In this document: positions 7,651 to 35,627 of the stretch, in pieces | How the letters are laid out: every line of letters starts with the position of its first letter | Position numbering within the stretch: the stretch's first letter is position 1 | Virus record (IMG/VR): IMGVR_UViG_2844443253_000007 | DNA length: 48,088 bases | DNA from: a virus | Taxonomy: Duplodnaviria > Heunggongvirae > Uroviricota > Caudoviricetes | Direction: 5' to 3' (one strand) | Made by a program: the position numbers and the translations under genes | Notes under the pieces: model-generated | Databases searched by the model: none | Told to the model about the DNA's origin: nothing | The model's input: only the letters and a program-made list of their open reading frames with translations

Positions 7651-7930
7651 AAGGAAACAAAACAGAAACAGCAATTGCCGTTACCTGTTGTTACCATGGC
7701 AAGTAAACGTATCTCAGGCGAGCGCATTGCGCCGTTCTGACGCAGATAAATTAGCCTGGATAGAAGGTGCTGGCAATAAAAAATAGCGTTTTCTTATCGG
7801 TATCGGTAAGATTGCTGCGGGTGCTTGAGGCTGTCTGCCTCGGGCATGCCACTGTAAGGCAGACAGAGAAAAGCCCCAGTTAACATTACGCGTCCTGCAA
7901 GACGCTTAACATTAATCTGAGGCCCAATCT

Positions 7931-8143
7931 ATGTCTCACAAATGTAGGTTAGCCTCTTACGTGCCGAAAGGCAAGGAGAAGCAGGCTATGAAGCAGCAAA
8001 AGGCGATGTTAATCGCCCTGATCGTCATCTGTTTAACCGTCATAGTGACGGCACTGGTAACGAGGAAAGACCTCTGCGAGGTACGAATCCGAACCGGCCA
8101 GACGGAGGTCGCTGTCTTCACAGCTTACGAACCTGAGGAGTAA
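7931..8143 (+). CDS. mok-like overlapping reading frame of hok locus
   Basis: Upstream in-frame ORF overlapping hok, as in hok/sok loci. Confidence 0.5.
   Translation: MSHKCRLASYVPKGKEKQAMKQQKAMLIALIVICLTVIVTALVTRKDLCEVRIRTGQTEVAVFTAYEPEE
7988..8143 (+). CDS. hok: Hok/Gef-family type I toxin (51 aa, HokD/RelF-like)
   Basis: MKQQKAMLIALIVICLTVIVTALVTRKDLCEVRIRTGQTEVAVFTAYEPEE - single TM plus conserved Cys, typical Hok. Confidence 0.8.
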   Translation: MKQQKAMLIALIVICLTVIVTALVTRKDLCEVRIRTGQTEVAVFTAYEPEE

Positions 8144-8631: not shown

Positions 8632-8648
8632 TAGGTAATGACTCCAAC

Positions 8649-9152
8649 TTACTGATAGTGTTTTATGTTCAGATAATGCCCGATGACCTTGTCATGCAGC
8701 TCCACCGATTTTGAGAACGACAGTGACTTCCGTACCAGCCTTGCCAGATGTTGTCTCAGATTCAGATTATGTCGCTCAATGCGCTGAGTGTAACGCTTGC
8801 TGATAACGTGCAGCTTTCCCTTCAGGCGTGATTCATACAGCGGCCAGCCATCCGTCATCCATACCACGACCTCAAAGGCCGACAGCAGGCTCAGAAGACG
8901 CTCCAGTGTGGCCAGAGTGCGTTCACCGAAGACGTGCGCCACAACCGTCCTCCGTATCCTGTCATACGCGTAAAACAGCCAGCGCTGACGTGATTTAGCA
9001 CCGACGTAGCCCCAATGTTCGTCCATTTCAGCGCAGACAATCACATCACTGCCCGGTTGTATGCGCGAGGTTACCGACTGCGGCCTGAGTTTTTTAAGTG
9101 ACGTAAAACCGTGTTGAGGCCAACGCCCATAATGCGTGCACTGGCACGACAT
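8649..9152 (-). CDS. insB: IS1 InsB (expressed as InsAB' by frameshifting)
   Basis: 167-aa ORF overlapping insA. Confidence 0.9.
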
Positions 9153-9346
9153 CCGACGCCATTCATGGCCATATCAATGATTTTCTGGTGCGTACCGGGC
9201 TGAGAGGCGGTGTAAGTGAACTGTAGTTGCCATGTTTTACGGCAATGAGAGCAGAGATAGCGCTGATGTCCGGCAGTGCTTTTGCCGTTACGCACCACGC
9301 CTTCAGTAGCGGAGCAGGAAGGACATCTGATGGAAATGGAAGCCAC
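9071..9346 (-). CDS. insA: IS1 InsA
   Basis: 91-aa ORF repeated in all four IS1 copies. Confidence 0.9.
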
Positions 9347-9479
9347 GCAAGCACCTTAAAATCACCATCATACACTAAATCAGTAAGTTGGCAGCATTAC
9401 CCTGTTAGTATTGGCATTAATTCTGGTATACTACATAACGGGCTGAACACCCATTCTACTGCGCCAGCGGAGAACTACG

Positions 9480-10920: not shown

Positions 10921-11307
10921 CTCAATCTGTTATCCGGGGCTATATTCCTCACGCGCCAGCAAAATCTGGCGTCGGGATTGGCGTCCCGGATGTTTACGGA
11001 GCGATATGAGACGCGCCCGCGTCTTTTTTCATATCGTTTGCACAGTCACATTCGCGATTTATGGCGGGCTGTGTGGGGGAGCCGAAAGGCTCGCCGGTTT
11101 CCGTACCCGGTTACGCCAACCCTGCACAGTTCGCCACCAGTTCGATTGGCGTCGTCGGTGGCGATAATTTCCAAATGTACGGAGTTATCGTTATGACCAC
11201 TCAAATCTCTGTTGAAACTCTCTCCCCGATCACCCATAACCAGTGAGGTAGCCTGAGTTTAACGGACACTCCTTCCTGAAATAGAATGGCATCAGAAGGA
11301 GCTAATA

Positions 11308-11645: not shown

Positions 11646-12464
11646 ATGTGTCAGGTATTTGGTGTATCCAGGAGCGGTTATTACAACTGGGTACAGCATG
11701 AACCCTCAGACAGAAAACAAAGTGATGAGCGGCTAAAACTGGAGATTAAGGTGGCACATATCCGCACTTGCGAAACATATGGAACCCGGCGGCTCCAGAC
11801 GGAGCTGGCAGAGAATGGCATCATCGTTGGTCGTGACCGACTGGCACGTCTTCGTAAGGAGCTGAGGCTACGCTGTAAGCAGAAACGCAAGTTCAGAGCG
11901 ACTACGAACCCGAACCACAATCTGCCAGTTGCGCCAAATCTGCTGAACCAGACGTTCGCTCCTACAGCACCAAATCAGGTCTGGGTGGCGGACCTGACGT
12001 ATGTTGCCACACAGGAGGGATGGTTGTACCTCGCTGGCATCAAAGATGTTTATACGTGTGAAATTGTCGGCTACGCCATGGGAGAGCGCATGACAAAAGA
12101 GCTGACAGGTAAAGCCCTGTTTATGGCGCTCAGGAGCCAGCGCCCACCTGCCGGGCTAATCCACCACTCTGATCGAGGTTCACAGTACTGCGCATACGAT
12201 TACCGGGTCATACAGGAGCAGTCTGGTCTGAAAACATCAATGTCGCGTAAAGGTAACTGTTACGACAACGCTCCGATGGAAAGCTTCTGGGGAACGCTGA
12301 AAAATGAGAGCCTGAGCCACTATCGTTTTAATAACCGGGATGAAGCCATCTCAGTAATACGGGAATACATTGAGATTTTCTACAATCGTCAGCGTCGTCA
12401 CTCTCGTCTGGGGAATATCTCCCCGGCAGCCTTCAGGGAAAAATATCATCAGATGGCTGCTTAA
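11646..12464 (+). CDS. IS600 OrfB transposase
   Basis: Near-identical to other copies (one R to C substitution). Confidence 0.9.
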   Translation: MCQVFGVSRSGYYNWVQHEPSDRKQSDERLKLEIKVAHIRTCETYGTRRLQTELAENGIIVGRDRLARLRKELRLRCKQKRKFRATTNPNHNLPVAPNLLNQTFAPTAPNQVWVADLTYVATQEGWLYLAGIKDVYTCEIVGYAMGERMTKELTGKALFMALRSQRPPAGLIHHSDRGSQYCAYDYRVIQEQSGLKTSMSRKGNCYDNAPMESFWGTLKNESLSHYRFNNRDEAISVIREYIEIFYNRQRRHSRLGNISPAAFREKYHQMAA

Positions 12465-13111
12465 AAAAAGAACAAATGGTAGTGTCCGCTATTGCCAGTA
12501 CACCTCACAGATTCCTGTTATTACCACCGAACTTTTGGCGCAGCTTTACGGCACTGAGCCGGTGCGTATTCGCCAGAATCATCATGAGAACAAAGTACGC
12601 TTCGTTGAAGGGAAACACTTTTTCAAAGTTGTTGGTAATGACCTTAAAGAATTGCGGGTCGCTTTAAACTACTCACAAAATCCAGTTTCACCCAAAGCCC
12701 GCTCCCTCATCCTCTGGACAGAACGAGGCGCAGCACGCCACGGCAAAATGCTCGAAACCGATCAGGCGTGGGATGTGTTCGAAAAACTGGAAGACTGCTA
12801 TTTCAGTCAAAGGGATCCGTCAACGCCAGTTTCATGCCAGAAAAGTTACGACACGCGAGTTCTCTGTTATCAGAGAGGCGGTGTCACTGTTTCCACAATT
12901 CAGTTACGGGATGATGATATTGTTATTTCCCTTGAGTCATGGCTGGAACTGGCGAGAGCCAATGGTTGGTTTGTTGTTCGCAGAGATAAACTGGTGGAAA
13001 GGTTGATGCAGCTTTAAAAAAGTTCTTGCATTTTTGCACATAAACTGCTTCAATTACGGTAAGCTTCGCAAAGCTGTATCGCGAGGCGAATAGCAGACAT
13101 GGACACTTGAA

Positions 13112-13225: not shown

Positions 13226-13302
13226 GGCCCTTTAGCTCAGTTGGTCAGAGCGAGCGACTCATAATCGCCAGGTCGCTGGTTCAAGTCCAGCAAGGGCCAC
13301 CA
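13226..13302 (+). tRNA. tRNA with anticodon CAT (Ile2/lysidine-type or Met)
   Basis: Cloverleaf with acceptor GGCCCTT/AAGGGCC, anticodon loop CTCATAA, TPsiC GGTTCAAGTCC, CCA end; resembles ileX/ileZ-type. Confidence 0.8.
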
Positions 13303-13303
13303 A

Positions 13304-13380
13304 CCACCACTAGCTCATCCGGATAGAGCATCAACCTTCTAAGTTGACGGTGCGAGGTTCGAGTCCTCGGTGGTGGGCCA
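13304..13380 (+). tRNA. tRNA-Arg (anticodon TCT); unusual acceptor stem beginning with C
   Basis: Anticodon loop CTTCTAA, TPsiC GGTTCGAGTCC, acceptor CCACCAC/GTGGTGG, CCA end. Confidence 0.7.
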
Positions 13381-13382
13381 GC

Positions 13383-13458
<76 letters not shown>

Positions 13459-13461
13459 TAT

Positions 13462-13536
<75 letters not shown>

Positions 13537-13650: not shown

Positions 13651-15255
13651 ATGATTCAGCTATCCAGTAGTCACAAACTTCCAGCAGTCTACTATCTCTA
13701 CCAGCGTAACGGCGTCTACTACTTCCGTCTTAGGGTCAGACAATCAAACAATGATAGAATGACCTCAATATCATTACGGACCAAGGATAGACGCACCGCT
13801 ATGGCTTACTCAAGGCACATAAAGGCAGCACTCAAGGCAATACACGCAGACAGACCCAACGCTACCTATGAGGAAATGAGGGAACACCTTAAGGACATCG
13901 CTGAGTGTGAACTGTCTATGGGCCGTTCAGATCTCTTTGAGCCTGACATGAGGGATATCTACCGGGACCAATACGGAGAACTTGGTGAGAGCCTTACCGA
14001 TGCTCTGGCTAGTGAGCCGCTAAGCATTGACCAGCATCGTTACATCAATGAGGCCCTGAAGGTGCTAAAAGCCTGTATGAGGCGTATCGAAGCGGGAGAC
14101 AGTCAGCCTCTGATAGATTACGTCGATCTTTTTAATGATATTGATAGGCAAGATAACCAAGCAGACTCTGTGTCCCTATCTGTTAATGCTCCAGAAGTAA
14201 AACCAGAAGTTACGCCTAGCATTACCATAGCGAGCCTCTTTGAACAATACGAAGCGGAGAACTATCAGAACTGGAAGCCTGCAACCTTAAGGGAAAACAA
14301 GGCGTCACACGCTGCGTTAATCGAAATATTCGACCATCTGGGTCTCAATGCAGACGCTAACAGGGCTGACATGCTTAGGGTCCGTGATGTGCTCCAGCAG
14401 TTACCTAGGAACCGTAAGCAGCGCTTCAAGGATGTCCCACTTGCTGACCTGTTGAGCCGTGAAGATAAGACAGATTGTCTGGATGTCGTTACCATCAACA
14501 ACAAGTATCTTATTAAGATGGCTGCTGTCTTTAGGTGGGCTGTGCGCAATGACTTGATTAAAAAGAACATGACTGAGGGTCTGGAGCTTAAAGTCCCTCA
14601 GCGTAAAGCCTCAGGGGCCCGTAACGCCTTCTCTACGGAGCAGGTGGGGCAACTACTGGTCGCAGCTAAGGCATACTCTCAGAAGACCTCTGGTAAGCCG
14701 TATCATTATTATGTTACCGCCTTGGCTGCTATCACTGGGGCGAGACTCAATGAAATAGCCCAACTACAGGTCAAAGACGTCAGGACCACTGAGGCGGGAA
14801 CCGTTTATATTCATATCAATGAAGACGATAGTAGTCTACCCGGTAAGAGCATCAAGAACGCTCATAGTGACCGCTGTGTGCCTCTGGTCGATGGGGCCTA
14901 TGGTTTTATATTGGCTGACTTTATGGCGCTTGTAGAGACCCGTAGAGGCGCTGACGGTGATGACGCTATGGTGTTCGATGGTCTGCGTCTCATGAAGAAC
15001 GGTTACGGTGAGCAGGTGAGTAAATGGTTTAATCGGACGTTGTTGCCTAAAGTCCTCGTAGACCGTAGCGGCTTAGCGTTTCACTCGTTTAGACATACAG
15101 TTGCGGCCCAGTTAAAACAACATGGGGTCGAGTTGGCGTATGCACAGGCGATCATGGGGCATAGTTCAGGGTCTATTACGTACGACCGTTATGCTAAAGA
15201 GGTCGAGGTTGATAGGCTGGTCAATGTGATGGCTGATGTTTATAAGGAGACCTAG
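13651..15255 (+). CDS. int: Tyrosine recombinase / integrase (534 aa) adjacent to tRNA cluster
   Basis: C-terminal catalytic signature (R in ITGARLNE, HSFRHT, final Y in ITYDRY); N-terminal arm-binding-like domain. Confidence 0.85.
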   Translation: MIQLSSSHKLPAVYYLYQRNGVYYFRLRVRQSNNDRMTSISLRTKDRRTAMAYSRHIKAALKAIHADRPNATYEEMREHLKDIAECELSMGRSDLFEPDMRDIYRDQYGELGESLTDALASEPLSIDQHRYINEALKVLKACMRRIEAGDSQPLIDYVDLFNDIDRQDNQADSVSLSVNAPEVKPEVTPSITIASLFEQYEAENYQNWKPATLRENKASHAALIEIFDHLGLNADANRADMLRVRDVLQQLPRNRKQRFKDVPLADLLSREDKTDCLDVVTINNKYLIKMAAVFRWAVRNDLIKKNMTEGLELKVPQRKASGARNAFSTEQVGQLLVAAKAYSQKTSGKPYHYYVTALAAITGARLNEIAQLQVKDVRTTEAGTVYIHINEDDSSLPGKSIKNAHSDRCVPLVDGAYGFILADFMALVETRRGADGDDAMVFDGLRLMKNGYGEQVSKWFNRTLLPKVLVDRSGLAFHSFRHTVAAQLKQHGVELAYAQAIMGHSSGSITYDRYAKEVEVDRLVNVMADVYKET

Positions 15256-16004: not shown

Positions 16005-16076
16005 TGAAGTGGCACACTGAATTTGGCCACCTGAACAGAGGTGATATGCTCACCTCAGAACAACACAGGTGCTCCA

Positions 16077-17245
<1,169 letters not shown>

Positions 17246-17253
17246 CCACTTCA

Positions 17254-17622: not shown

Positions 17623-17778
17623 ATGTCTCAACAACCACAACAACCACAACAAGAAATCAGCATCATTAACCTCGACCAGCTTGTGTCCATGACCTCAGTT
17701 GAAATTGCTGAGCTGACAGGCAAGGAGCACCGAAATGTCCTTCGTGATATTCGTAAGATGCTCGAAGAACTTAACGCG
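17623..17778 (+). pseudogene. Rha-family phage regulatory protein, N-terminal fragment truncated by IS1
   Basis: TSVEIAELTGKEHRNVLRDIRKML matches Rha/antirepressor N-terminal motif; ORF runs into IS1. Confidence 0.7.
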
Positions 17779-17833
17779 GGTAATGCTGCCAACTTACTGA
17801 TTTAGTGTATGATGGTGATTTTAAGGTGCTTGC

Positions 17834-18109
17834 GTGGCTTCCATTTCCATCAGATGTCCTTCCTGCTCCGCTACTGAAGGCGTGGTGCGTAACGGCAAAA
17901 GCACTGCCGGACATCAGCGCTATCTCTGCTCTCATTGCCGTAAAACATGGCAACTACAGTTCACTTACACCGCCTCTCAGCCCGGTAAGCACCAGAAAAT
18001 CATTGATATGGCCATGAATGGCGTCGGATGTCGCGCCAGTGCACGCATTATGGGCGTTGGCCTCAACACGGTTTTACGTCACTTAAAAAACTCAGGCCGC
18101 AGTCGGTAA
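17834..18109 (+). CDS. insA: IS1 InsA
   Basis: Repeated ORF. Confidence 0.9.
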
Positions 18110-18531
18110 CCTCGCGCATACAACCGGGCAGTGATGTGATTGTCTGCGCTGAAATGGACGAACATTGGGGCTACGTCGGTGCTAAATCACGTCAGCGCTG
18201 GCTGTTTTACGCGTATGACAGGATACGGAGGACGGTTGTGGCGCACGTCTTCGGTGAACGCACTCTGGCCACACTGGAGCGTCTTCTGAGCCTGCTGTCG
18301 GCCTTTGAGGTCGTGGTATGGATGACGGATGGCTGGCCGCTGTATGAATCACGCCTGAAGGGAAAGCTGCACGTTATCAGCAAGCGTTACACTCAGCGCA
18401 TTGAGCGACATAATCTGAATCTGAGACAACATCTGGCAAGGCTGGTACGGAAGTCACTGTCGTTCTCAAAATCGGTGGAGCTGCATGACAAGGTCATCGG
18501 GCATTATCTGAACATAAAACACTATCAGTAA
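18028..18531 (+). CDS. insB: IS1 InsB
   Basis: Repeated ORF. Confidence 0.9.
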
Positions 18532-18546
18532 GTTGGAGTCATTACC

Positions 18547-19497
18547 AAAAAAAGCAACAGCGTATTTTGCACAGGAGTCGCTGAAAAATACGCGTTAATC
18601 GAACAATGGCGACAACAATTTCCCATTGAAGCGATGTGTCAGGTATTTGGTGTATCCAGGAGCGGTTATTACAACTGGGTACAGCATGAACCCTCAGACA
18701 GAAAACAAAGTGATGAGCGGCTAAAACCGGAGATTAAGGTGGCACATATCCGCACTCGCGAAACATATGGAACCCGGCGGCTCCAGACGGAGCTGGCAGA
18801 GAATGGCATCATCGTTGGTCGTGACCGACTGGCACGTCTTCGTAAGGAGCTGAGGCTACGCTGTAAGCAGAAACGCAAGTTCAGAGCGACTACGAACCCG
18901 AACCACAATCTGCCAGTTGCGCCAAATCTGCTGAACCAGACGTTCGCTCCTACAGCACCAAATCAGGTCTGGGTGGCGGACCTGACGTATGTTGCCACAC
19001 AGGAGGGATGGTTGTACCTCGCTGGCATCAAAGATGTTTATACGTGTGAAATTGTCGGCTACGCCATGGGAGAGCGCATGACAAAAGAGCTGACAGGTAA
19101 AGCCCTGTTTATGGCGCTCAGGAGCCAGCGCCCACCTGCCGGGCTAATCCACCACTCTGATCGAGGTTCACAGTACTGCGCATACGATTACCGGGTCATA
19201 CAGGAGCAGTCTGGTCTGAAAACATCAATGTCGCGTAAAGGTAACTGTTACGACAACGCTCCGATGGAAAGCTTCTGGGGAACGCTGAAAAATGAGAGCC
19301 TGAGCCACTATCGTTTTAATAACCGGGATGAAGCCATCTCAGTAATACGGGAATACATTGAGATTTTCTACAATCGTCAGCGTCGTCACTCTCGTCTGGG
19401 GAATATCTCCCCGGCAGCCTTCAGGGAAAAATATCATCAGATGACTGCTTAAAAAAAGAACAAATGGTAGTGTCCGCTATTGCCAGTACACCTCAGT
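18547..19497 (+). mobile_element. IS600, 3' partial copy (~951 bp; first ~325 bp including most of orfA missing)
   Basis: Begins at A-run inside orfA 3' end; ends with IS600 right terminus ...CACCTCA. Confidence 0.9.
18634..19452 (+). CDS. IS600 OrfB transposase (no orfA upstream)
   Basis: Near-identical to other copies. Confidence 0.85.
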   Translation: MCQVFGVSRSGYYNWVQHEPSDRKQSDERLKPEIKVAHIRTRETYGTRRLQTELAENGIIVGRDRLARLRKELRLRCKQKRKFRATTNPNHNLPVAPNLLNQTFAPTAPNQVWVADLTYVATQEGWLYLAGIKDVYTCEIVGYAMGERMTKELTGKALFMALRSQRPPAGLIHHSDRGSQYCAYDYRVIQEQSGLKTSMSRKGNCYDNAPMESFWGTLKNESLSHYRFNNRDEAISVIREYIEIFYNRQRRHSRLGNISPAAFREKYHQMTA

Positions 19498-19498
19498 A

Positions 19499-19848
19499 AT
19501 CCATCCAGGCCTGTTGTTGCAGAGCTTGGCGATGATTCAGGCTGGCATTTTTTCAGCCAGAGAAACCCGGATAACAGCATAGTGTTCACTGTTAACGGAC
19601 AGGTAATTCCGTTAAATTACGGAAACTTCGATGCCCGCTATAAATATCGAACAGAGGGGGTACAGGATGTACGGTATGGCCATGAAATGTATTACAGCCC
19701 CGGCAGTAACACCGTTTCGTGGAGATTTTGCGCACCTTCGGGACACGGGCTGTCAGGGATGGCGATATCGGATACCGGCCGTAACTCAGCGGATAACGTT
19801 GACGGTGTGTATTACCGACCACTGCAAAAACTGATTAATGGCACCTAG
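19499..19848 (+). pseudogene. Phage tail fiber protein, C-terminal fragment (5' part removed at IS600 junction)
   Basis: ORF track protein begins inside IS600 end; C-terminal fiber-like sequence followed by tail fiber assembly gene. Confidence 0.55.
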
Positions 19849-19871
19849 TATAACGTAGCGAGTATTTAACA

Positions 19872-20416
19872 ATGTTGCATTTAAAAAATATTACTACGGG
19901 TAATCCGAAAACAGCAGAACAATATCAGATGACAAAACGATATTCGGTCACCTGGCTTTTTTCAGAAGACGGAAAAAACTGGTATGAAGAGCTGAAGAAT
20001 TTCGCCAGGACACAATTAAAATAACTTACACCGGAGACGGTCGCGTGGTGTGGGTCGGTAAGGATGTGACAGGCATTGAACCCCGTAACGCCAGTGTTAT
20101 TGAAGTTCCTGATATTACCGCCAACCGCCGCATTACCGCGCCGGGTTACTGGTTTTACCGCAATGATGAATTTGTCTTTGACTACAGACTCAAAGCGGAA
20201 GATGAGCGTGATGCCCTTCTGGCTCAGGTCAGTGCCCGGACAGGGGAATGGGAAGAAGACCTGCTGCTGGGGTTAATCAGCGACGAAGATAAAGAAAAGC
20301 TGAAAGCCTGTCGTATTTACGCGAAATCGCTGCAGGCGATGGATTTCAGCACCATCACTGATAAATCCTCATACAACGCCATTGAATGGCCCGCCTCTCC
20401 GGAAGGTTCTTCCTGA
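19872..20416 (+). pseudogene. Tail fiber assembly protein, frameshifted near 20000
   Basis: N-part [19 protein letters not shown]... stops at 20024; C-part continues in another frame and ends with IEWPASPE typical of Tfa. Confidence 0.65.
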
Positions 20417-20439
20417 TTTAATTTATCGCGAGAAAAACA

Positions 20440-21354
20440 ATGTCTGTAGTGATATCAGGTGCGCTGACTGATGGCGCAGGTATCCCCATGTCCGGATACC
20501 ATATTATTCTGAAATCCCGGGTAAACCCCCCGGAAGTGGTGATGAACACTGTTGCTGATGTGATGACAGGAAACGATGGTGAATACTGTTTCCATGCGCG
20601 GACTGGAAAATATGGTGTGTATCTGAAACAGGACTGGCGCAACGAGTACAACGTTGGCGACATTGCTGTATATGAGGACTCAAAGCCCGGCACGCTGAAT
20701 GACTTTCTGATTGCTCCTGATGAGGGCGACCTGAAACCGGATGTCGTCAAACGCTTTGAGGAAATGGTGGCGCAGGCGCAGCAGAGCGCCGGGGCCGCAG
20801 CCGGAAACGCACAGCAGACGGCGCAGGATGTGGCGGCAGCCGCAGGTTATGCCCGCGCAGCAGAGCAGGCCAAAAATGACATTGATGCTGCGCTGACCGG
20901 CACTCTGAAAACGGCTAACCATCTGTCTGAAATCGCAGCAGCAGGCGAAAAGGCACAACAGAAGTCCCGGGATAATCTGGGGCTGAAAAGTGCGGCCACG
21001 ATGGAAGCACAGAGCGACATTTACGACCGGACAAAAGGCCGTCTGGCGATACCCGGCGCATTCGGCTTTGGGTGTGCTTTTCTGCCTGAAGATGTTATCC
21101 GTTTTGACACTAAGAGTGATTTCCTGGCCTGGGTAAGGAATGCGCTGCCAGGTGAATATTCCGTTGCTGGCCCCTACGGCATCATCATACCCGACACACG
21201 GTTTGAAGGGGTGCTCAGCATCCGGTGGACTGATGCACGCCCTGAGACAACAGAACCGCGGTACAGAGCCAAATCCCTTACTTTTTACGGCATTAACGGC
21301 CCCATTTATCACACCCGCTACCGCTACTGGCCCATATCCAGACTGACTGGGTGA
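20440..21354 (+). CDS. Phage tail fiber protein (N-terminal conserved type)
   Basis: 304 aa, Ala/Gln-rich central region typical of side tail fibers. Confidence 0.6.
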   Translation: MSVVISGALTDGAGIPMSGYHIILKSRVNPPEVVMNTVADVMTGNDGEYCFHARTGKYGVYLKQDWRNEYNVGDIAVYEDSKPGTLNDFLIAPDEGDLKPDVVKRFEEMVAQAQQSAGAAAGNAQQTAQDVAAAAGYARAAEQAKNDIDAALTGTLKTANHLSEIAAAGEKAQQKSRDNLGLKSAATMEAQSDIYDRTKGRLAIPGAFGFGCAFLPEDVIRFDTKSDFLAWVRNALPGEYSVAGPYGIIIPDTRFEGVLSIRWTDARPETTEPRYRAKSLTFYGINGPIYHTRYRYWPISRLTG

Positions 21355-21704
21355 AAATAAATATAACCACAGAAGATATTATTTACAGAATCGTGGCGAG
21401 CTCTGTCCGCAACAGATGGGGAGACCCTGACATTGGCGGGCTGATTATTGCTGCGTACCAGGGAGAAGCTGACGGTGATAAAGTCATCAGACTTGTCAGG
21501 GGGCAGTCATACAGAGGCTCACGACTGGGACCGGTGGGGATTTCAGTGCCCAGTACTCCCACCGGAACGTATATAGCATCCCCACAATTTTTCATTACGG
21601 GATGTTCAGAGCATTCATTACCGGGGTCATATTGCGCCCTGTCCGGGGTGCCGGATGCTCATGTCTCTGGCGCAATGCCCGGGCTTTTTATTCGCACATC
21701 GTGA
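21351..21704 (+). CDS. Tail-fiber-associated hypothetical ORF (possibly remnant of fiber C-terminus)
   Basis: GTG start overlapping upstream stop; region from 21538 is duplicated at 41736. Confidence 0.4.
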   Translation: MKINITTEDIIYRIVASSVRNRWGDPDIGGLIIAAYQGEADGDKVIRLVRGQSYRGSRLGPVGISVPSTPTGTYIASPQFFITGCSEHSLPGSYCALSGVPDAHVSGAMPGLFIRTS

Positions 21705-21713
21705 GGAATGCAC

Positions 21714-22278
21714 CGTGGAAATTAAAAAAATCATTAATCCCCGTTATACCGAAAGTGGCGCAGTAGACTGTGACGTTTTTTTTGACGACAGGGACCAGGC
21801 AGTCCCCTACACAGCCACCGCTGATGATGTCGCTCCGACGGGTCAGCAAATCTGGCAGGAACTGCAAAGCGGCAAATGGGGTGAGATAGCCCCATTCACT
21901 GTGACACCAGAAATGCTGGAAGCGGCCAGAGAGGCCAGACGTCAGGAAATTGAAGCATGGCGCGCAGAACAGGAGGCGAAGCTGTTCACGTTTGAATGGA
22001 ACGGTCGTATCTGGAATGCTGGTCCCGACTCACTGGGCCGCCTGTCCCCGGTAGTCATGCTGGCAAAATCTGTCACAGCACAAACACATATGGCGTGGAG
22101 CGATGCCGATAATCAGCAGGTGAAACTGTCGATGCCGGAACTGGAAGAACTGGCGGCAGCAATGGTGCAGGCGCAGGTCGATCGCAACGATGAGATTTAT
22201 CGCCGTCAGCGGGAGCTGAAGGAAGAGCTGAATAGTCTGAAGGATTTGAATTCGGTTAGGAATTTTATCGTGGAATAA
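21714..22278 (+). CDS. Tail fiber assembly protein (Tfa-like)
   Basis: [25 protein letters not shown]... typical Tfa N-terminus; GTG start; second diverged copy at 41911-42475. Confidence 0.7.
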
Positions 22279-22478
22279 CAGAAGCTGCGGCACGTCGTAT
22301 GCAGGAACGTGCCGCGGTTGGCTGGTAAACTTTCGATAGTGCGAGTATTGAATGATTTCTAGGCGTTATCGATTTTACGTATTTTTTGCATGATAGAATT
22401 CGTACCTCCTCCCAACGACCTTCCATGGCTTTCCGGACTTCTGTAGGCTGGCGGACGATGCTGTCCTCGGATGTTGTG

Positions 22479-23336
22479 CTAATTGGGTGATAACAGATCC
22501 TGTGTATGGGCGTTTCCCTTTGTGCGTGCGTTGATGCTGGTAACGGTAAACGTCATGATGAACACGACCGCGAATAAGACGACAATCGTCGGAGCTGGTG
22601 CGCTGTCGATAAAAAAGGACAGCCAGACACCAGTCATTGACACTATTACCGATATGCCAGTCGCCAGTAGGAGCGCAATATGAAAGCGTTGTGTCAGGAG
22701 TACTGCAATGGCGCCAGGCGCAATGAGCAGAGAAATAGAGAGAATGATACCTACTGCTTTCAGCGTCGCCACAATGGTCAGGGAAACCATGCACAGCAGC
22801 CCATAATGCAGCCATCTCGTATGCAAACCGCTTACCTGCGCCTGTTGATAATCAAAGCTGAACAGCAAAAAATCCCGCCATTTTACGCTAATAACAAGTG
22901 TAACCAGCCCGGCAATAATCACCGTCTGGATTATGTCGCCGATGGTTATCCCGAGCATGTCGCCGAAAAGAATATGGTCAAGATGTACGTCTGGTTTAAT
23001 TGCAATATACAAGATCAGACCTGCGGCAAACATGCCAGAAAAAACAATCCCCATAACTGTATCTTGCTTGATTCGGCTGTTGTCTTTCAGGTATCCCGTC
23101 GCCACCGCGCAGAATACTCCGGCGACGAATGCCCCTGTAGCCAGAGGTAACCCCAGAATCCAGGTAAGCACGATGCCAGGAAAAACCGCATGACTCATCG
23201 CGTCACCCATCAGTGCCCAACCTTTCAGGACCAGAAAGACCGACAGCAGCGCACAGGGTATGGAAACTACCAGTGAAATCAGCAGTGCGTGACTCATAAA
23301 GGTGAACTGCAGTGGCTCCAGTAATAATGCCATCAT
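22479..23336 (-). CDS. sitD: Mn/Fe ABC transporter permease SitD
   Basis: 285-aa polytopic membrane protein, last gene of four-gene operon. Confidence 0.85.
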   Translation of the reverse strand: MMALLLEPLQFTFMSHALLISLVVSIPCALLSVFLVLKGWALMGDAMSHAVFPGIVLTWILGLPLATGAFVAGVFCAVATGYLKDNSRIKQDTVMGIVFSGMFAAGLILYIAIKPDVHLDHILFGDMLGITIGDIIQTVIIAGLVTLVISVKWRDFLLFSFDYQQAQVSGLHTRWLHYGLLCMVSLTIVATLKAVGIILSISLLIAPGAIAVLLTQRFHIALLLATGISVIVSMTGVWLSFFIDSAPAPTIVVLFAVVFIMTFTVTSINARTKGNAHTQDLLSPN

Positions 23337-24190
23337 GAGCGATCCTCCAGCGCTTTATGCGCACGCCGACGATTTGCCAAAAGTCCATGGGTGGGCGCAA
23401 ATACAAATGCTAAAAGAAACAGCAGTGTCTGCGCCACCACGATGATTCCACCTGTCGCGCCGTCCAGAAAGTAACTGACCCACGCGCCGAGGAAACTGGT
23501 TACACTGCCAATAGTTACAGCAATTATGAGCAGGCGGGGAAAACGATCGGTTAACAACCATGCTGTTGCACCGGGAGTCACCACCAGACAGATCACCAGA
23601 AAGGCACCAACCGTTTGCAGCGCCGCAACGGTCGAAACCGACAGCAGGGTGAAGAAGAGGATTTTTAATCTGCCCGGATGTAATCCAATAGCACGGGCGT
23701 GATTCTCGTCGAAAAAGGTCACCATAAGATCTTTCCATTTGAAAAAAAGCACGATGATCGAGAGAATGCCAATGATAGTGAGTTGCAGGATATCCGCCGG
23801 ATCGATTGCCAGAATATTGCCCAGGACGATGGTCTGAATGTTCACGGATGTCGGGTTCAATGACACCATAAACAGCCCCAGGCCAAAAAAGGACGAGAAG
23901 ATCAGGCCGATGATGGCATCTTCTTTTAAGCGGGTGCGTTGGTTAAGAAACAGCATGCTGCCCGCTGCCAGTCCGCCGGAAAAGAAGGCTCCCAGAGAAA
24001 ACGGAAGCCCCAGCATATATGCCCCCGCAACACCCGGGACAATAGAGTGCGACAGCGCATCGCCAATCAGCGACCAGCCTTTTAGCATCAGATAGCATGA
24101 CAGGAAAGCGCAGAGACCGCCGACCATTGCCGAGACCCACATCGCATTGAGCATATATTCATAGCTGAAGGGTTCCAGTAGCACGTTCAT
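23333..24190 (-). CDS. sitC: Mn/Fe ABC transporter permease SitC
   Basis: 285-aa membrane protein, overlapping start/stop with neighbours. Confidence 0.85.
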
Positions 24191-25014
24191 CTTGCTTCCC
24201 TCTGCACCGCTGACGGTCGATGTGCCACAAAAGGGCGTTCATCGTCAGTAATAATGCTTTCTTCCGAGCCGTTAAGTGTGACATGGCGCAGTACGCCGCT
24301 AAAAGCCAGCTCCAGGTTCTCGGCTGTAAAAGTGGTGTCTGTCGGCCCGCTTGCCAGGACGGTGCCTTTGACCATGACCGTATAATCGCAAAATGTCGTG
24401 ACTGAGCCGAGATTGTGCGTTGAGACAAGCATCGTTTTGCCTTCCGCGCGTAACTCCCTCAACAGGCTGATGATTTTCGCTTCGGTTTTCACATCAACGC
24501 CGGTAAAAGGTTCATCCAGCAGGATCACATCACCCTGCTGTGCAATTGCTCTCGCCAGAAAGACGCGTTTCTTTTGTCCACCGGAAAGCTCGCCGATTTG
24601 ACGATGGCGAAAATCCACCATATCGACACGTTCCAGCGCATCGGTGACAATCTGACGATCCCTCTTTTTGGCTATACGCAACATACCCATATGCCCATAG
24701 CGGCCCATCATCACCACATCTTCCACCAGTACAGGAAATGACCAGTCAACCTCTTCTGACTGAGGGACGTAGGCAACCAGGTTTTTCTGTAGCGCCTGTC
24801 GCGTGGGAATACCCAGAACAGATATCTTTCCGCTGGTCAGACGCACAAATCCCATAATCGCTTTAAACAACGTCGATTTTCCGGAACCGTTTACCCCAAC
24901 CAGAGCGGCAATAGATCCACTTGGTACTGTGAAGGATGCATCGCGCAGTGCTGTGTGCCCGTTACGCCAGGTGACAGTAACATCATTAACGACAATGCCT
25001 GCAGATTGCATCAT
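24187..25014 (-). CDS. sitB: Mn/Fe ABC transporter ATP-binding protein SitB
   Basis: Walker [13 protein letters not shown] signature LSGGQKKR, Walker B ILLDEP. Confidence 0.9.
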
Positions 25015-25928
25015 TATTTCTCCCTTTTCCCGGCTTTAATTCCCTGTACCAGCGTACTGGTAGTAACCTTAAGAAGGTCGATATACGTAGGTACCGGGCC
25101 GTTTTCTGTGCTCAGGGAATCGACATAGAGCACACCGCCGTAGTGTGCGCCGGTTTCACGCGCAACCTGACGCGCTGGTTTATCGGAAATCGTACTCTCG
25201 CTAAAGACTGCCGGGATATGATTTTTCTTAACTATATCAACAACCTTACGTACCTGCTGCGGTGTTCCTTGTTGATCGGCATTAATCGGCCACAGATAAA
25301 GCTCTTTTAGCCCCAAATCGCGTGCGAGATAAGAAAAAGCCCCTTCACTGGTGACCATCCATCGCTGATTCTCAGGGAGTTCCGTAATCTGCTTACGCAG
25401 GGGGGCAAGGGTTTGGGTAATCTTGGCTTTATAAGTATCGGCATTACGTTGGTAGGTTTGTGCATTTGCCGGATCGTATTTTATCAACGCATCACGAATA
25501 TTATCGACGTAAATCAGAGCATTATCTGGCGACATCCATGCATGGGGATTAGGTTTGCCCTCATAGGGTCCTTCGGTGATCCCTACTGGCGTCACACCCG
25601 AAGAGACAATTACTTCTGGAACCCCATTGAGATGCTGGTAAAAGCGTTGGAACCACAATTCCAGATTCATACCATTGGCGAGAATCAGTTGTGCCCCCTG
25701 CGCACGTTTAATATCGCCAGGGGTAGGCTGATACTCATGAATTTCTGCACCAGGCTTGGTTATGGATGAGACTTCTGCAGCATCTCCAGCCACGTTTTTG
25801 GCCATATCCGCGATGATGGTAAATGTTGTAATGACCTTGAATTTTTCAGTTGCACTTGCCTGAAATGCGATCGAGCAGGTGAGGGCGAGGCACCCCAAGA
25901 GCATGGTTACTTTTTTTATTGAGTGCAT
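25014..25928 (-). CDS. sitA: Periplasmic Mn/Fe-binding protein SitA
   Basis: Signal peptide plus metal-binding SBP fold; operon order sitABCD. Confidence 0.9.
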
Positions 25929-25960
25929 AATTTAGTACCTATAGTGAGCAAAATTAGAAC

Positions 25961-25982
25961 AAACATAGCAACGGCTATGTTT
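25961..25982 (-). promoter_or_regulatory. MntR box upstream of sitA
   Basis: Perfect palindrome AAACATAGC-AACG-GCTATGTTT. Confidence 0.75.
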
Positions 25983-26002
25983 TATAGCATAACCTATACA
26001 AA

Positions 26003-26023
26003 ATGAAAATAATTATCATTAAC
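26003..26023 (-). promoter_or_regulatory. Fur box candidate upstream of sitA
   Basis: GTTAATGATAATTATTTTC (minus strand) resembles GATAATGATAATCATTATC. Confidence 0.55.
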
Positions 26024-27054
26024 AGCTTTGAGGCCTAAAACAGGGATTAGGTTGTTTCCTGCTGGCGACATGATATTGAGGAAAAAAGTAGAGCAGCTAT
26101 TAGGCTTTGAAATGACTTTATGAGGAAAATTGTTGATGGCAAAAATGGGGCAAAAAAGAGTGGGTTATCGTAGCTTATTGTTGTCGCTGATAATGTTTAA
26201 CATATTGAAAAATAAATAAAATACTTATGAGTCAGATAGTTGTGATTTTTGCCCTTACTTGTTCAGGTTGTATTGTTCTTTCTTTGTAATTTGTTGATTT
26301 TCTTGCATTATTTCAGTTCTCTGGTACTAAATGGGGCAAATTGGGGGCAAACTTTGCAACTACGATAACCGCGCATTCAACATGGCTATCTGTTCGTCGT
26401 TCATGTCATCAATCCACATACCGTAAATTTCATACACCATTTGCGCAGTTTCATGCCCCATCTGGCTGGCTATAAATGCCGGGTTCGCTCCTGCCGTCAA
26501 CAGCCAGCAGGCAAAAGTATGTCGCGTATGGTACGGATTACGGCGGCGAATACCAGCACGTTTTACTGCTGCATTCCATCTTGTACCCAAACTGCTTACC
26601 GAGTAATAAGGTTTCTGTTTTTCGTTACACACCCTGGGCATGAAAACAAAATGCAGTTTTTGTTTTTCAGTTCTGCCGTACTCCCGATGATAAAAAGTGA
26701 TTTCGCTTTTGCGATGATGCCCGGTCAGTTTGTATTGCTCCTTCAGTGCTTCAAGAGCCGGCTGCAGTAATGCTACCGTCCGGATCCCGGCATTTGTTTT
26801 TGGGGGACCGAACATATCAAGTATCGTCAGGTTTCTTCTGACATTCACAATTCCCTTCTCGAAATCCACATCCTCCCACGCCAGAGCTGCCAGTTCCCCG
26901 TGACGAAGCCCGGAGTAAACGGCAAATTTCCACAAGTTTTGGCTCTGTCCTTTTTCACTTTCCATTAATGCATTGAATTCTGTTTTAGATAACGGGTCAG
27001 GTAATGCTGCCAACTTACTGATTTAGTGTATGATGGTGATTTTAAGGTGCTTGC

Positions 27055-27330
27055 GTGGCTTCCATTTCCATCAGATGTCCTTCCTGCTCCGCTACTGAAG
27101 GCGTGGTGCGTAACGGCAAAAGCACTGCCGGACATCAGCGCTATCTCTGCTCTCATTGCCGTAAAACATGGCAACTACAGTTCACTTACACCGCCTCTCA
27201 GCCCGGTACGCACCAGAAAATCATTGATATGGCCATGAATGGCGTCGGATGTCGTGCCAGTGCACGCATTATGGGCGTTGGCCTCAACACGGTTTTACGT
27301 CACTTAAAAAACTCAGGCCGCAGTCGGTAA
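27055..27330 (+). CDS. insA: IS1 InsA
   Basis: Repeated ORF. Confidence 0.9.
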
Positions 27331-27752
27331 CCTCGCGCATACAACCGGGCAGTGATGTGATTGTCTGCGCTGAAATGGACGAACATTGGGGCTACGTCGG
27401 TGCTAAATCACGTCAGCGCTGGCTGTTTTACGCGTATGACAGGATACGGAGGACGGTTGTGGCGCACGTCTTCGGTGAACGCACTCTGGCCACACTGGAG
27501 CGTCTTCTGAGCCTGCTGTCGGCCTTTGAGGTCGTGGTATGGATGACGGATGGCTGGCCGCTGTATGAATCACGCCTGAAGGGAAAGCTGCACGTTATCA
27601 GCAAGCGTTACACTCAGCGCATTGAGCGACATAATCTGAATCTGAGACAACATCTGGCAAGGCTGGTACGGAAGTCACTGTCGTTCTCAAAATCGGTGGA
27701 GCTGCATGACAAGGTCATCGGGCATTATCTGAACATAAAACACTATCAGTAA
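27249..27752 (+). CDS. insB: IS1 InsB
   Basis: Repeated ORF. Confidence 0.9.
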
Positions 27753-28155
27753 GTTGGAGTCATTACCCACCGGAACTGATTTGATGAACTATCAACGCTC
27801 TTAAATTCCCGGCCTTTTTAATGTTACTGTTAGTAATCTCCCAGCCTTTCAATGTTTCCCGACATCGTTTTCCTCGAAACATGAACCAGATGCGAATGTA
27901 TTTACCTCGAATCTCGACACCTGTTGGTAATTTAGACATATCATGAGTCTTTGATAAACTGATTTATCTTCGGATAGTTGTACCAGATAATCCCTCGCTT
28001 ACTGTCTGGCTTCCCTAAAGGAGATACTCGTTTGAAGTGGAAGCCTTCCACCCAACAGTTCTGGCGGTATGCTTCAATTTGTCTGGCACCCAGACCAGTG
28101 CGAAGCATCAGGCTGAACCGCCCCGGGTTTCCTGGAGAGTGTTTTATCTGTGAAC

Positions 28156-29038
<883 letters not shown>

Positions 29039-29042
<4 letters not shown>

Positions 29043-29365
29043 TTTTTCCAGAGGCGGTCGAACTCCGCCTTCGCAAAATAAGCGGAAGCCTGGCGAAGGA
29101 TATCGTTACTGCGGCGCAGTTCACGATTTTCACGCTCCAGCTCTTTCAGACGCTGACGTTCAGCGGTGGTGAGCCCTCCATCACCGCCCCCGGTATCCCG
29201 CTCATGCTGGCGAACCCAGACACGCAGAGTCTCCGGCGTACAGCCAATCTTTGGGGCAATGGAACAAATTGTCGCCCATTGTGAGTCATATTCGCCCTGA
29301 CTTTCCAGAACCATACGGACTGCCCGTTGACGGACTTCGGGGGAAAAACGAGTATTTTTAGTCAT
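29039..29365 (-). CDS. IS629-like OrfA
   Basis: 108-aa [25 protein letters not shown]... Confidence 0.85.
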
Positions 29366-29649
29366 CCTGTTTACCTCTTTCTCAGGAAGTTTAGTCTCCA
29401 GGATTCCCGGGGCGGTTCATTCCCAAAATGCACTTGGTTTTACACCGGAATATTCTCATCGTATCCTGCTTGTTGCGTTTCGTTTTGTGTTTGTGGATCC
29501 GGGAATGCATATTCAACGCCTTCCAGTTCAATCCATAGTGCATTACGACCAGCTTTGATTGTCGGCCAGTCCATACCTGAAGTGGCACACTGAATTTGGC
29601 CACCTGAACAGAGGTGATATGCTCACCTCAGAACAACACAGGTGCTCCA

Positions 29650-33088
<3,439 letters not shown>

Positions 33089-33093
33089 CCACT

Positions 33094-34059
33094 TCAACCT
33101 TTGATTCTTTCCCATGAGCGGGAGGTGAATGTTTTTTCCAGCAAATCAGCTTTTGCGCGTTTGGCGTCGTTACTGGTGCCCCCATGGTGCTTGTTGAGCA
33201 ACTCGATAATTTCATCAAGTGCGATTTCTTTTGCACGCTTTTCTTTTAGCCATGTCGGTGTACCGTCGTTGGCAAATAATTCACTGTTATCCCGTGAGGT
33301 ATCGATGCCGGGGTGTTCACCTCCCAGGTTAAGAGACTCGATATGAGGAAGAAAGTTTTTAAATGTTGGGTTTGAAAATACCTGTCCATCAATACGGGTG
33401 GAGCGATCTTTTAGTATTCTGGCGGTGCGCCACACCTGACCGGTTTCTATGTTCATTTGCTTCTCCATCTGGATCCGGATGGAGGGTTCATAACCGGTTT
33501 CTGTTTCTGCTTTCATTTTTATACCGGTTTTTGCCAACTGGCGTTTGCCATCATCACCTTCGAAAAAGTCATACTCATATCCTGCACGCCCGCACATAAT
33601 AATGTGCGCCTGACTGTTAACAAATCGATCGGTAAAGCGTCGCCACTCCTGTTTGAGCCACGCCCAGTCTGAAAATTCCAGTCCTCGTTTACGGTTTCGG
33701 CGTCTGGCATACTCGTCGCATAATCCGGTCCAGAAGTGACTGATGGAGTCGATGATCATTACGGAACCGCTGCTTTCCGCTTCATTAATGGCTTCAAGCA
33801 GATCAACAAACGAGCGGGTTTTTGCCGTAAATAATTCGATATTTTCCGCATCAAAGCGGGGTTTAACCCAGTCAGAGCCTGTTTCTGTGTCCAGAAACAT
33901 TACCGGGCGGTTACCACCTTCAATTCCCCGTTGCCGCATAAGCATTACCAGACCAATAGCCAGTTCGCTTGCTGTGTAGGTTTTGCCGTCGCCAGCAAAC
34001 CCCATAATTCCTGCTTTTAGATAGGCCTGTGTGTTTATTGCTCGTTGAAAAAGCGCCAT
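33094..34059 (-). CDS. P-loop NTPase (phage-associated ATPase, possibly AAA_24/Sak4-like); stop codon lies in IS911 terminus
   Basis: Walker A GFAGDGKT, Walker B-like MIIDSISH; native C-terminus possibly lost. Confidence 0.5.
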   Translation of the reverse strand: MALFQRAINTQAYLKAGIMGFAGDGKTYTASELAIGLVMLMRQRGIEGGNRPVMFLDTETGSDWVKPRFDAENIELFTAKTRSFVDLLEAINEAESSGSVMIIDSISHFWTGLCDEYARRRNRKRGLEFSDWAWLKQEWRRFTDRFVNSQAHIIMCGRAGYEYDFFEGDDGKRQLAKTGIKMKAETETGYEPSIRIQMEKQMNIETGQVWRTARILKDRSTRIDGQVFSNPTFKNFLPHIESLNLGGEHPGIDTSRDNSELFANDGTPTWLKEKRAKEIALDEIIELLNKHHGGTSNDAKRAKADLLEKTFTSRSWERIKG

Positions 34060-34064
34060 AGATT

Positions 34065-34358
34065 TTAGTCCTCCAAATCAATATCAACCTGGTGGTGGGC
34101 AATGGTTTCAGCCATGTACCGGATGTGTTCTGCCATGCGCTCCTGAAACTCAACATCATCATCAAATGCGTGGCTGATTGCCTGTTTATTGGCACCGTGG
34201 CGTTGCAAATGGTCGATGCAGAGCGATTCAAACAGGTGCTGAGGCAGACCTTTTTCCAGGTCGTCCGCCAGTTCCGTTTCTTTTTCTTCACGAACGATCT
34301 GCTGGTAGTGACGAGCCCATGCCATTTCTTCAATACGATCAAAAATCGGATAAGCGCT
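34065..34358 (-). pseudogene. C-terminal fragment of unknown gene; 5' part displaced by IS600
   Basis: ORF continues only by reading into IS600 left end. Confidence 0.4.
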
Positions 34359-34423
34359 CTGAGGTAGCCTGAGTTTAACGGACACTCCTTCCTGAAATAG
34401 AATGGCATCAGAAGGAGCTAATA

Positions 34424-34726
34424 ATGAGCAGAAAAACCCAACGTTACTCTAAATAGTTCAAAGCCGAAGCTGTCAGAACGGTTCTTGAAAATCAACTTTC
34501 GATCAGTGAAGGCGCTTCCCGATTATCTCTTCCTGAAGGCACTTTAGGACAATGGGTTACCGCCGCCAGAAAAGGGCTCGGTACTCCTGGTTCCCGCACG
34601 GTGGCTGAACTGGAATCTGAAATTCTGCAACTGCGTAAGGCGTTAAATGAAGCTCGCCTTGAGCGCGATATATTAAAAAAAGCAACAGCGTATTTTGCAC
34701 AGGAGTCGCTGAAAAATACGCGTTAA
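34424..34726 (+). pseudogene. IS600 orfA with premature TAG at codon 11 (GAG to TAG)
   Basis: tactctaaaTAGttcaaag versus tactctaaaGAGttcaaag in other copies. Confidence 0.85.
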
Positions 34727-34761
34727 TCGAACAATGGCGACAACAATTTCCCATTGAAGCG

Positions 34762-35580
34762 ATGTGTCAGGTATTTGGTGTATCCAGGAGCGGTTATTAC
34801 AACTGGGTACAGCATGAACCCTCAGACAGAAAACAAAGTGATGAGCGGCTAAAACTGGAGATTAAGGTGGCACATATCCGCACTCGCGAAACATATGGAA
34901 CCCGGCGGCTCCAGACGGAGCTGGCAGAGAATGGCATCATCGTTGGTCGTGACCGACTGGCACGTCTTCGTAAGGAGCTGAGGCTACGCTGTAAGCAGAA
35001 ACGCAAGTTCAGAGCGACTACGAACCCGAACCACAATCTGCCAGTTGCGCCAAATCTGCTGAACCAGACGTTCGCTCCTACAGCACCAAATCAGGTCTGG
35101 GTGGCGGACCTGACGTATGTTGCCACACAGGAGGGATGGTTGTACCTCGCTGGCATCAAAGATGTTTATACGTGTGAAATTGTCGGCTACGCCATGGGAG
35201 AGCGCATGACAAAAGAGCTGACAGGTAAAGCCCTGTTTATGGCGCTCAGGAGCCAGCGCCCACCTGCCGGGCTAATCCACCACTCTGATCGAGGTTCACA
35301 GTACTGCGCATACGATTACCGGGTCATACAGGAGCAGTCTGGTCTGAAAACATCAATGTCGTGTAAAGGTAACTGTTACGACAACGCTCCGATGGAAAGC
35401 TTCTGGGGAACGCTGAAAAATGAGAGCCTGAGCCACTATCGTTTTAATAACCGGGATGAAGCCATCTCAGTAATACGGGAATACATTGAGATTTTCTACA
35501 ATCGTCAGCGTCGTCACTCTCGTCTGGGGAATATCTCCCCGGCAGCCTTCAGGGAAAAATATCATCAGATGGCTGCTTAA
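34762..35580 (+). CDS. IS600 OrfB transposase (R to C substitution)
   Basis: Near-identical to other copies. Confidence 0.85.
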   Translation: MCQVFGVSRSGYYNWVQHEPSDRKQSDERLKLEIKVAHIRTRETYGTRRLQTELAENGIIVGRDRLARLRKELRLRCKQKRKFRATTNPNHNLPVAPNLLNQTFAPTAPNQVWVADLTYVATQEGWLYLAGIKDVYTCEIVGYAMGERMTKELTGKALFMALRSQRPPAGLIHHSDRGSQYCAYDYRVIQEQSGLKTSMSCKGNCYDNAPMESFWGTLKNESLSHYRFNNRDEAISVIREYIEIFYNRQRRHSRLGNISPAAFREKYHQMAA

Positions 35581-35627
35581 AAAAAGAACAAATGGTAGTG
35601 TCCGCTATTGCCAGTACACCTCACAGG

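Follow-up and report, generated by a model that had tools for sequence, protein, structure and literature searches.

A phage-borne sitABCD manganese and iron importer with predicted MntR and Fur operators in a decayed lambdoid prophage

We analyzed a 48,088-nucleotide stretch of viral-record DNA (IMG/VR record IMGVR_UViG_2844443253_000007), referred to here as the window, with a focus on the sitABCD operon that it carries. The explanation that we favor, and hold with high confidence, is that sitABCD encodes a phage-borne Mn/Fe importer carried as host-regulated cargo in a decayed lambdoid prophage, of the kind known as pathogenicity island (PAI) sit. Under this explanation, the operon encodes an ATP-binding cassette (ABC) importer for Mn2+ and Fe2+, in which SitA is the periplasmic binding protein, the ATPase is SitB, and the two permeases are SitC and SitD. 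The operon would represent accessory cargo (a 'moron') of a Rac-family lambdoid phage, located in its b region between the side-tail-fiber genes and the attachment site and integrase gene (attP-int), and this phage would have decayed into an island riddled with insertion sequences (IS) in a Shigella or enteroinvasive E. coli (EIEC) chromosome. Being read from its own promoter, in the direction opposite to the phage late genes, the operon would be tied to host metal sensing: Fe2+-Fur is expected on a Fur box lying over the -35 element, Mn2+-MntR is expected on two tandem boxes straddling the -10 element and the start region, and transcription would occur only when Fe and/or Mn is scarce, for example inside host cells. 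The interpretation given in an earlier note on the same DNA, that of a prophage-borne fitness island under dual metal regulation, is correct and already established, and the locus opens no new question.

The four sit genes are arranged in the order A-B-C-D on the minus strand, a strand assignment that refines the earlier placement of an Mn/Fe uptake operon at 22479-26030. The sitA gene (25014-25928) encodes a periplasmic Mn/Fe-binding protein of 304 aa with a signal peptide, and its match to Pfam ZnuA (PF01297, E 9e-86) identifies the product as a cluster A-I metal-binding protein of the ZnuA/TroA fold. The nearest solved structure is that of Yersinia pestis YfeA (5uxs), with residues 24-297 aligned at E 4e-125. 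Genes annotated as sitA in E. coli genomes match it with a DNA identity of 98-99.8%. The ABC ATPase gene sitB (24187-25014; 275 aa) matches the NCBIfam equivalog NF011630, 'manganese/iron ABC transporter ATP-binding protein', with 593.7 bits against a cutoff of 393, while sitC (23333-24190) and sitD (22479-23336) each encode an ABC-3 permease of 285 aa (Pfam PF00950, E 4e-83 and E 1e-75, respectively). All four open reading frames (ORFs) are full length against annotated copies, and neighboring ORFs overlap by 1-4 bases, with start/stop overlaps as in the reference copies. The operon is intact; Mn2+ and Fe2+ as the metals transported by Sit/Yfe-type systems are taken from the literature (PMC3852070, PMC4746246). 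The GC content of the sit genes is 48-53%, only the promoter/att region is AT-rich (38-42% GC), and no clear island signal from GC content was found across the sit locus.

An MntR-type palindrome and a Fur-box-like sequence had been placed within 100 bp upstream of sitA, and both sites were confirmed, at 33-54 and 77-95 bp upstream of the ATG, respectively. The predicted proximal MntR operator, AAACATAGCAACGGCTATGTTT (25961-25982), has a single occurrence in the window, compared to 0 expected from dinucleotide-preserving shuffles with up to two mismatches allowed. The earlier description of this site as a perfect palindrome holds for its two 9-bp arms, which are fully complementary, but not for the central 4 bp (AACG). 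The comparison with the mntH promoter that the earlier note had proposed gave a clear result: the operator of E. coli K-12 mntH, AAACATAGCAAAGGCTATGTTT (AAACATAGC-N4-GCTATGTTT), shares 21 of its 22 bases with the sit box. The layout is also the same, as the MntR box of mntH is immediately preceded upstream by a Fur-like site. The mntH promoter has one full MntR box and an upstream half-site, CATAGC, whereas the sit promoter has two boxes; the mntH product is an NRAMP proton symporter, whereas sit encodes an ABC importer. The source for the mntH promoter is reportedly Patzer and Hantke 2001.

The second MntR-type box of the sit promoter, at 25984-25997, is degenerate. It reads ATAGG-TTAT-GCTAT in the direction of sitA and lies 19 bp farther upstream than the proximal core (25965-25978). 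The operator sequence stands as claimed, with the refinement that there are two MntR-type boxes, not one. When one mismatch is allowed, the pattern ATAGC-N4-GCTAT has only two matches in 48 kb, the proximal core and the distal box. The proximal box is 100% conserved among phage, chromosomal and plasmid copies of sit. For the comparison across species, we used 125-300 bp upstream of sitA, with the loci taken from a contig scan of one genome per species; no E. coli or Shigella locus is among the matches listed. The core ATAGC-N4-GCTAT was present near the ATG, 12-39 bp away, in 16 of 16 Enterobacterales sitA promoters, and a second box at exactly 19-bp spacing (start to start) was present in 15 of these 16, the present window included. 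This amounts to 32 hits, vs. a shuffle mean of 0.08. The motif was absent upstream of the alphaproteobacterial and Photobacterium sitA genes in the promoters compared. We infer from sequence that the distal box, like the proximal one, would be occupied by MntR. Tandem MntR boxes at the sit promoter are not mentioned in the literature that was searched, the primary papers on sit regulation excepted. The latter are said to be Ikeda 2005, Runyen-Janecky 2006 and Fisher 2009.

On the minus strand, the predicted Fur box GTTAATGATAATTATTTTC (26005-26023) agrees with the 19-bp consensus for Fur, GATAATGATAATCATTATC, in 16 of 19 bases. The 48 kb contain no other site of this kind, and 0.02 would be expected by chance; the match reaches up to 17 of 19 in other sit alleles. 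A candidate sigma-70 promoter was read by eye at 25981-26009 on the minus strand, with TTTTCA as the -35 element (26004-26009), a 17-bp spacer, and TATAAA as the -10 element (25981-25986). The candidate -35 overlaps the Fur box and the candidate -10 falls where the two MntR boxes meet. The cross-genus alignment shows conservation of a -10-like TATA(A/T)A; the precise positions given for the -35 and -10 of the sitA promoter are putative assignments. The promoter is essentially invariant among phage ev207, two E. coli chromosomes and plasmid pAPEC-O2-ColV, and the copy in the window is identical to those of E. coli FDAARGOS_944 and pAPEC-O2-ColV. A more divergent sit allele of IncF type still keeps its MntR box and Fur core, whereas the bases around them differ. 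Likewise, both operators keep their position across the Enterobacterales genera, whereas the adjoining sequence diverges. A Fur-like site with 3-5 mismatches is located 71-80 bp from the ATG in Phytobacter, Shimwellia, Erwinia amylovora, Atlantibacter, Raoultella and Photobacterium, and a weaker one (6 mismatches) is found in the Salmonella, Buttiauxella and Enterobacter sitA promoters.

Repression of sitABCD by Mn-MntR and Fe-Fur has been reviewed for Salmonella and Shigella (PMC3852070, PMC9315381), and sitA-lacZ fusions in fur and mntR mutants show repression by both MntR and Fur (PMC8970401). Along with the predicted MntR and Fur operators found here, these reports support the dual metal regulation that the earlier note had proposed. 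Several observations weigh against a host-regulated operon. The mntR and fur genes are outside the window, and their presence in the genome is assumed. The Fur box is not kept in the Pantoea sit promoters, and Fur control is thus not universal in the family. Finally, the proposed sitA promoter is absent from the hits of the consensus promoter scan; the scan missed this candidate because it demands T at the last -10 position, and its total hits were no more numerous than in shuffled sequences.

The sitABCD operon in Salmonella enterica pathogenicity island 1 (SPI-1) has the same layout and the same dual MntR/Fur control (PMC3852070, PMC9315381, PMC8970401). In the Salmonella arizonae sit promoter, a weak Fur-like site (6 mismatches) is found at the same offset, together with two MntR-type boxes at the same spacing. 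The Salmonella SitA protein is ~76% identical to that in the window, and its gene is located in SPI-1, not in a prophage. Zhou 1999, Kehres 2002 and Ikeda 2005 are reportedly the sources for this system. The Yersinia pestis YfeABCD system is a transporter of the same type with the same metals, which is chromosomal and not phage-borne. Yersinia is without MntR, and Fur alone mediates repression by both Fe and Mn (PMC3852070). Among the matches listed, the SitA protein of the window is 65-76% identical to the alphaproteobacterial SitA proteins of Rhizobium, Mesorhizobium, Bartonella and Brucella; these are as close as some Enterobacterales copies, which fits a wide lateral transfer of the operon.

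Of 5426 complete E. coli genomes, 2336 (43%) contain the 4.1-kb sit region, with an identity of 97-99.8% to the annotated sitABCD genes. At a query coverage of at least 80%, the region was also found in 27 phage records and in 976 plasmids, most of them conjugative and of IncF/ColV type. Across 4.1 kb, E. coli copies match the sit segment of the window with 99.9% identity. A 3.66-kb cassette (22459-26119) is 98.2% identical in intact lambdoid phages, where it is located between the tail genes and int. No direct or inverted repeats were found at the cassette ends, 22459 and 26119, the only repeats detected being short, at chance level and located elsewhere. As is typical for a moron, the sit genes lie between the tail-fiber genes and att/int, are oriented opposite to the late genes, and occupy the same slot in intact phages.

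The inducible lambdoid coliphages Lambda_ev207, 1H12 and Perceval and the prophage 042p3 harbor the same cassette in the same place and orientation, with an upstream Fur box (PMC6969025). These coliphages are intact, whereas the present prophage is decayed. In ev207, there are extra genes between sitA and int, the integrase is different and an icd fragment adjoins int, whereas the window has a Rac-type intR and a ttcA attachment site. Since the same cassette is found with different integrases, it is common to lambdoid phages of differing integration modules. The sitABCD genes have been reported on 70% of the lambda-like phages induced from infant-gut E. coli, all with a fur box, which was interpreted as integration into the host Fur regulon, and sit was classed as a moron (PMC6969025). 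The operon is also located at the tail end of prophage 042p3 in enteroaggregative E. coli 042 (PMC2808357). The occurrence of the cassette between tail-fiber genes and int in inducible phages, and the previous description of PAI sit (PMC7545054), are in agreement with the prophage-borne fitness island of the earlier note.

The prophage tail genes that had been noticed on one side of the operon correspond to positions 19480-22278 on the plus strand. This segment contains a tail-fiber C-terminal fragment (19480-19848) and a tail-fiber-assembly fragment (20045-20416), followed by an stf gene (20440-21704), which is frameshifted, with a change of frame at ~21345 in a tblastn comparison with Stf of E. 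coli FDAARGOS_944. The next gene, encoding a tail-fiber-assembly-like protein (21655-22278; Pfam DUF4376), is intact. With matches to PHROG tail-fiber families and to Pfam phage_tail_N and DUF4376, 19480-22278 is a decayed lambdoid side-tail-fiber region. A GC-rich hairpin with a 10-bp stem (GCGGCACGUU/GACGUGCCGC, then AGCUUCUGUUAUU) was identified at 22287-22315, between the convergent DUF4376 gene and sitD, from the fold of 22270-22480. The hairpin was not called under the T-run rule of the terminator scan; it may act as a bidirectional terminator of the two convergent genes.

On the other side of the operon, a 43-bp att core (26259-26301) is located between sitA and intR, and overlaps the phage-borne start of ttcA (ttcA'; 26255-26308, minus strand), which consists of 17 codons (MQENQQITKKEQYNLNK) and a stop. 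Homology to the attR side of E. coli loci (sitA...uspF) stops at 26301, and homology to the attL side (ttcA-intR) begins at 26259. The order sit-core-intR is therefore that of a phage-form (attP-like, POP') junction, such as exists when the genome is circular or where two prophages lie in tandem. Plasmid pAPEC-O2-ColV has the same attP-like junction, together with 43 bp of the intR 3' end. The junction sequences suggest that the island and the sit module of the ColV plasmid derive from a circular or tandem form of a Rac-family phage, rather than from a single integrated prophage. No paper joining sitABCD with the Rac prophage was found in the literature search. It is conceivable, although we would not expect it, that the tandem MntR boxes, with their 19-bp spacing in 15 of 16 promoters and the -10 at their junction, and the Rac-phage origin of the attP-like junction are both unreported.

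The degraded, IS1-disrupted integrase described in the earlier note is indeed present, and can now be identified as a Rac-type intR separated from sit by the attP-like junction. Its C-terminal fragment (26363-26999, minus strand; residues 199-411, aligned over 26363-27001) is 97.7% identical by tblastn to IntR of E. coli 3059 and matches Pfam Phage_integrase; intR is annotated in the homologous E. coli loci. An N-terminal fragment (residues 1-57; 27769-27939) and a fragment of xisR (residues 13-71; 27944-28120) were found by tblastn on the same strand. The IS1 copy that truncates intR (27000-27767, plus strand), identified by self-BLAST and by a match to NF033558 (IS1 transposase), abuts the C-terminal fragment and lies between the remaining pieces of the gene, from which codons 58-198 have been deleted in addition. 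The flanks of this IS1, AACGGGTCA and CACCGGAAC, differ, and there is no 9-bp target duplication. Beyond xisR, remains of a Rac-type early region extend over 28121-29577 and 33094-37052, including what is left of recE, its N-terminal 474 aa (35628-37052 on the minus strand), where the truncated gene abuts an IS600-like copy at 34360-35623.

The window contains four IS1, five IS600-like, two IS2-like and two IS911-like elements, one of the latter being split by a group II intron. It also contains two Shigella/EIEC markers, ipaH3 and the small RNA CssrB. The presence of these markers in an IS-saturated window points to a Shigella or EIEC chromosome as the source of the DNA, and a near-identical contig is available (GCA_008973575.1, WACK01000007.1; 99.98% identity). 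With sitABCD embedded in phage-derived genes, numerous IS elements, ipaH3 and CssrB, the locus corresponds to PAI sit of Shigella flexneri and pathogenic E. coli, in which the same genes (98-99.8% DNA identity to annotated sitABCD) are found in the same context of phage genes and IS elements, with ipaH3 and CssrB nearby; nothing essential is different. This island was first found in S. flexneri, and is rearranged, IS-rich and unstable through homologous recombination (PMC7545054); PAI sit and sitABCD have been reviewed (PMC7545054, PMC4746246, PMC3852070). The present copy adds the attP-like junction, the IS1-associated loss of intR codons 58-198, and a direct pair of IS1 elements. Runyen-Janecky 2003 and 2006 and Fisher 2009 are said to be the sources for PAI sit and sitABCD.

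A second prophage remnant is located at 41734-44730. Its first part (41734-42445) is a 98% copy of the stf-end/DUF4376 genes at 21537-22248, followed by ipaH3 (42655-44370, minus strand) and then by CssrB (44499-44681). Past the ipaH cassette, at ~44650-44730, there is a homologue of the hairpin segment located after DUF4376 at the sit locus. The possibility that ipaH3 is in exactly the same slot as sit was rejected, as ipaH3 is located between DUF4376 and the conserved hairpin segment, whereas sit is located after the hairpin segment. Since ipaH3 and sit both lie next to related DUF4376/hairpin segments, they appear to be alternative b-region cargoes of related phages.

The direct IS1 pair raises an alternative view of the locus, namely that the sit segment is an IS1-bounded composite element, moved or lost via IS1, with the phage genes as passenger debris. 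The copy at 17778-18546 (plus strand) is in direct orientation with that at 27000-27767, and the two bracket an 8.5-kb segment comprising the tail-fiber region, sit and the intR remnant. Neither is flanked by a target duplication of 9 bp, in contrast to the remaining IS1 copies, at 8634-9401 and 44857-45624, which have clean duplications (CTGTTAGTA and GGTTGAATG, respectively). ColV/IncF plasmids also carry sit adjoining IS1, and the direct IS1 copies are plausible substrates for recombinational deletion of sit, in line with the reported instability of PAI sit through homologous recombination (PMC7545054). However, the same cassette with the same flanks is found in IS-free intact phages and prophages, and no target duplication was seen around the whole IS1-sit-IS1 unit. 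We therefore regard the composite element as an unlikely account, although one to be taken seriously; it concerns the present mobility of the segment rather than its origin or function, and is compatible with phage-borne, host-regulated cargo. A different alternative is that the operon is itself a decaying, non-functional remnant, its operators being inherited relics. The state of its neighbors is in favor of this, as stf is frameshifted, intR is deleted in part, both xisR and recE have been cut short, and the window holds IS elements in about a dozen copies. Yet the four sit ORFs are full length, with a promoter and a 4.1-kb segment that are identical or nearly so to other copies, as described above, and the persistence of an intact sit operon among pseudogenes speaks for selection. 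Moreover, sit is found in all Shigella species, where it provides an advantage in intracellular growth and virulence (PMC3852070, PMC4746246). We consider a non-functional remnant highly improbable.

It could also be argued that the palindrome at 25961-25982 is mainly an RNA hairpin, serving as a terminator or attenuator of read-through from intR/ttcA' into sitA rather than as an operator. The terminator scan lists it as terminator-like, with a 9-bp stem and a 4-nt loop followed by GTTCTAATTT, and intR, the ttcA' start and sitA are all on the minus strand. On the other hand, the stem has only three G-C pairs and is followed by a poor T-run. The arms ATAGC/GCTAT are conserved as sequence across genera, without compensatory changes, while the spacer varies; the same motif is present upstream of mntH, where there is no such read-through context; and the presence of a second MntR-type box at a constant distance of 19 bp is in keeping with protein binding rather than termination. 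There is no Rfam element in the sitA leader; a search of this region for riboswitches and other leader RNAs gave nothing credible (one match, E 0.67, to a Plasmodium snoRNA). A role of the palindrome mainly as an RNA hairpin is thus extremely improbable, and a predicted MntR operator is the preferred assignment.

Several other features were observed in the window. A cluster of four tRNA genes (13226-13536), Met(cat), Arg(tct), Thr(tgt) and Gly(tcc), is directly followed by an ORF for a tyrosine integrase-like protein of 534 aa (13651-15255; DUF6538 and Phage_integrase); together they may represent another integrative element or a phage tRNA array. A P1/P7-type immunity module with C4 antisense RNA and isrK is present in two copies (10940-11141 and 39889-40077), adjoined by ORFs of anti-repressor or Rha-family type at 12370-13017 and 39496-40128. 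The sok (CssrC) antitoxin RNA is located at 7819-7993. Among the IS elements, the IS911-like copy at 29578-33096 is split by a 2.27-kb group II intron (30340-32609), with a reverse transcriptase/maturase ORF at 30996-32519 and the Rfam Intron_gpII domain at 32523-32609, and an intact IS911-like copy is found at 16005-17253. An IS3-family element contains an ALIL frameshift pseudoknot at 28968-29084.

The details added here are modest. The attP-form junction is useful for tracing the movement of the cassette from phage to plasmid. The tandem operators, if true, imply repression by two adjacent MntR dimers and an Mn response steeper than that of the single-box mntH promoter; they are a modest addition useful for promoter engineering. 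The sitA promoter, PsitA, is in use as an Mn/Fe reporter. The sitABCD system is a recognized fitness and virulence factor of Shigella, of avian pathogenic and extraintestinal pathogenic E. coli, and of Salmonella, and the fact that it travels on temperate phages and ColV plasmids accounts for its wide and patchy distribution. The locus shows horizontally acquired cargo arriving pre-wired into the Fur and MntR regulons of the host.

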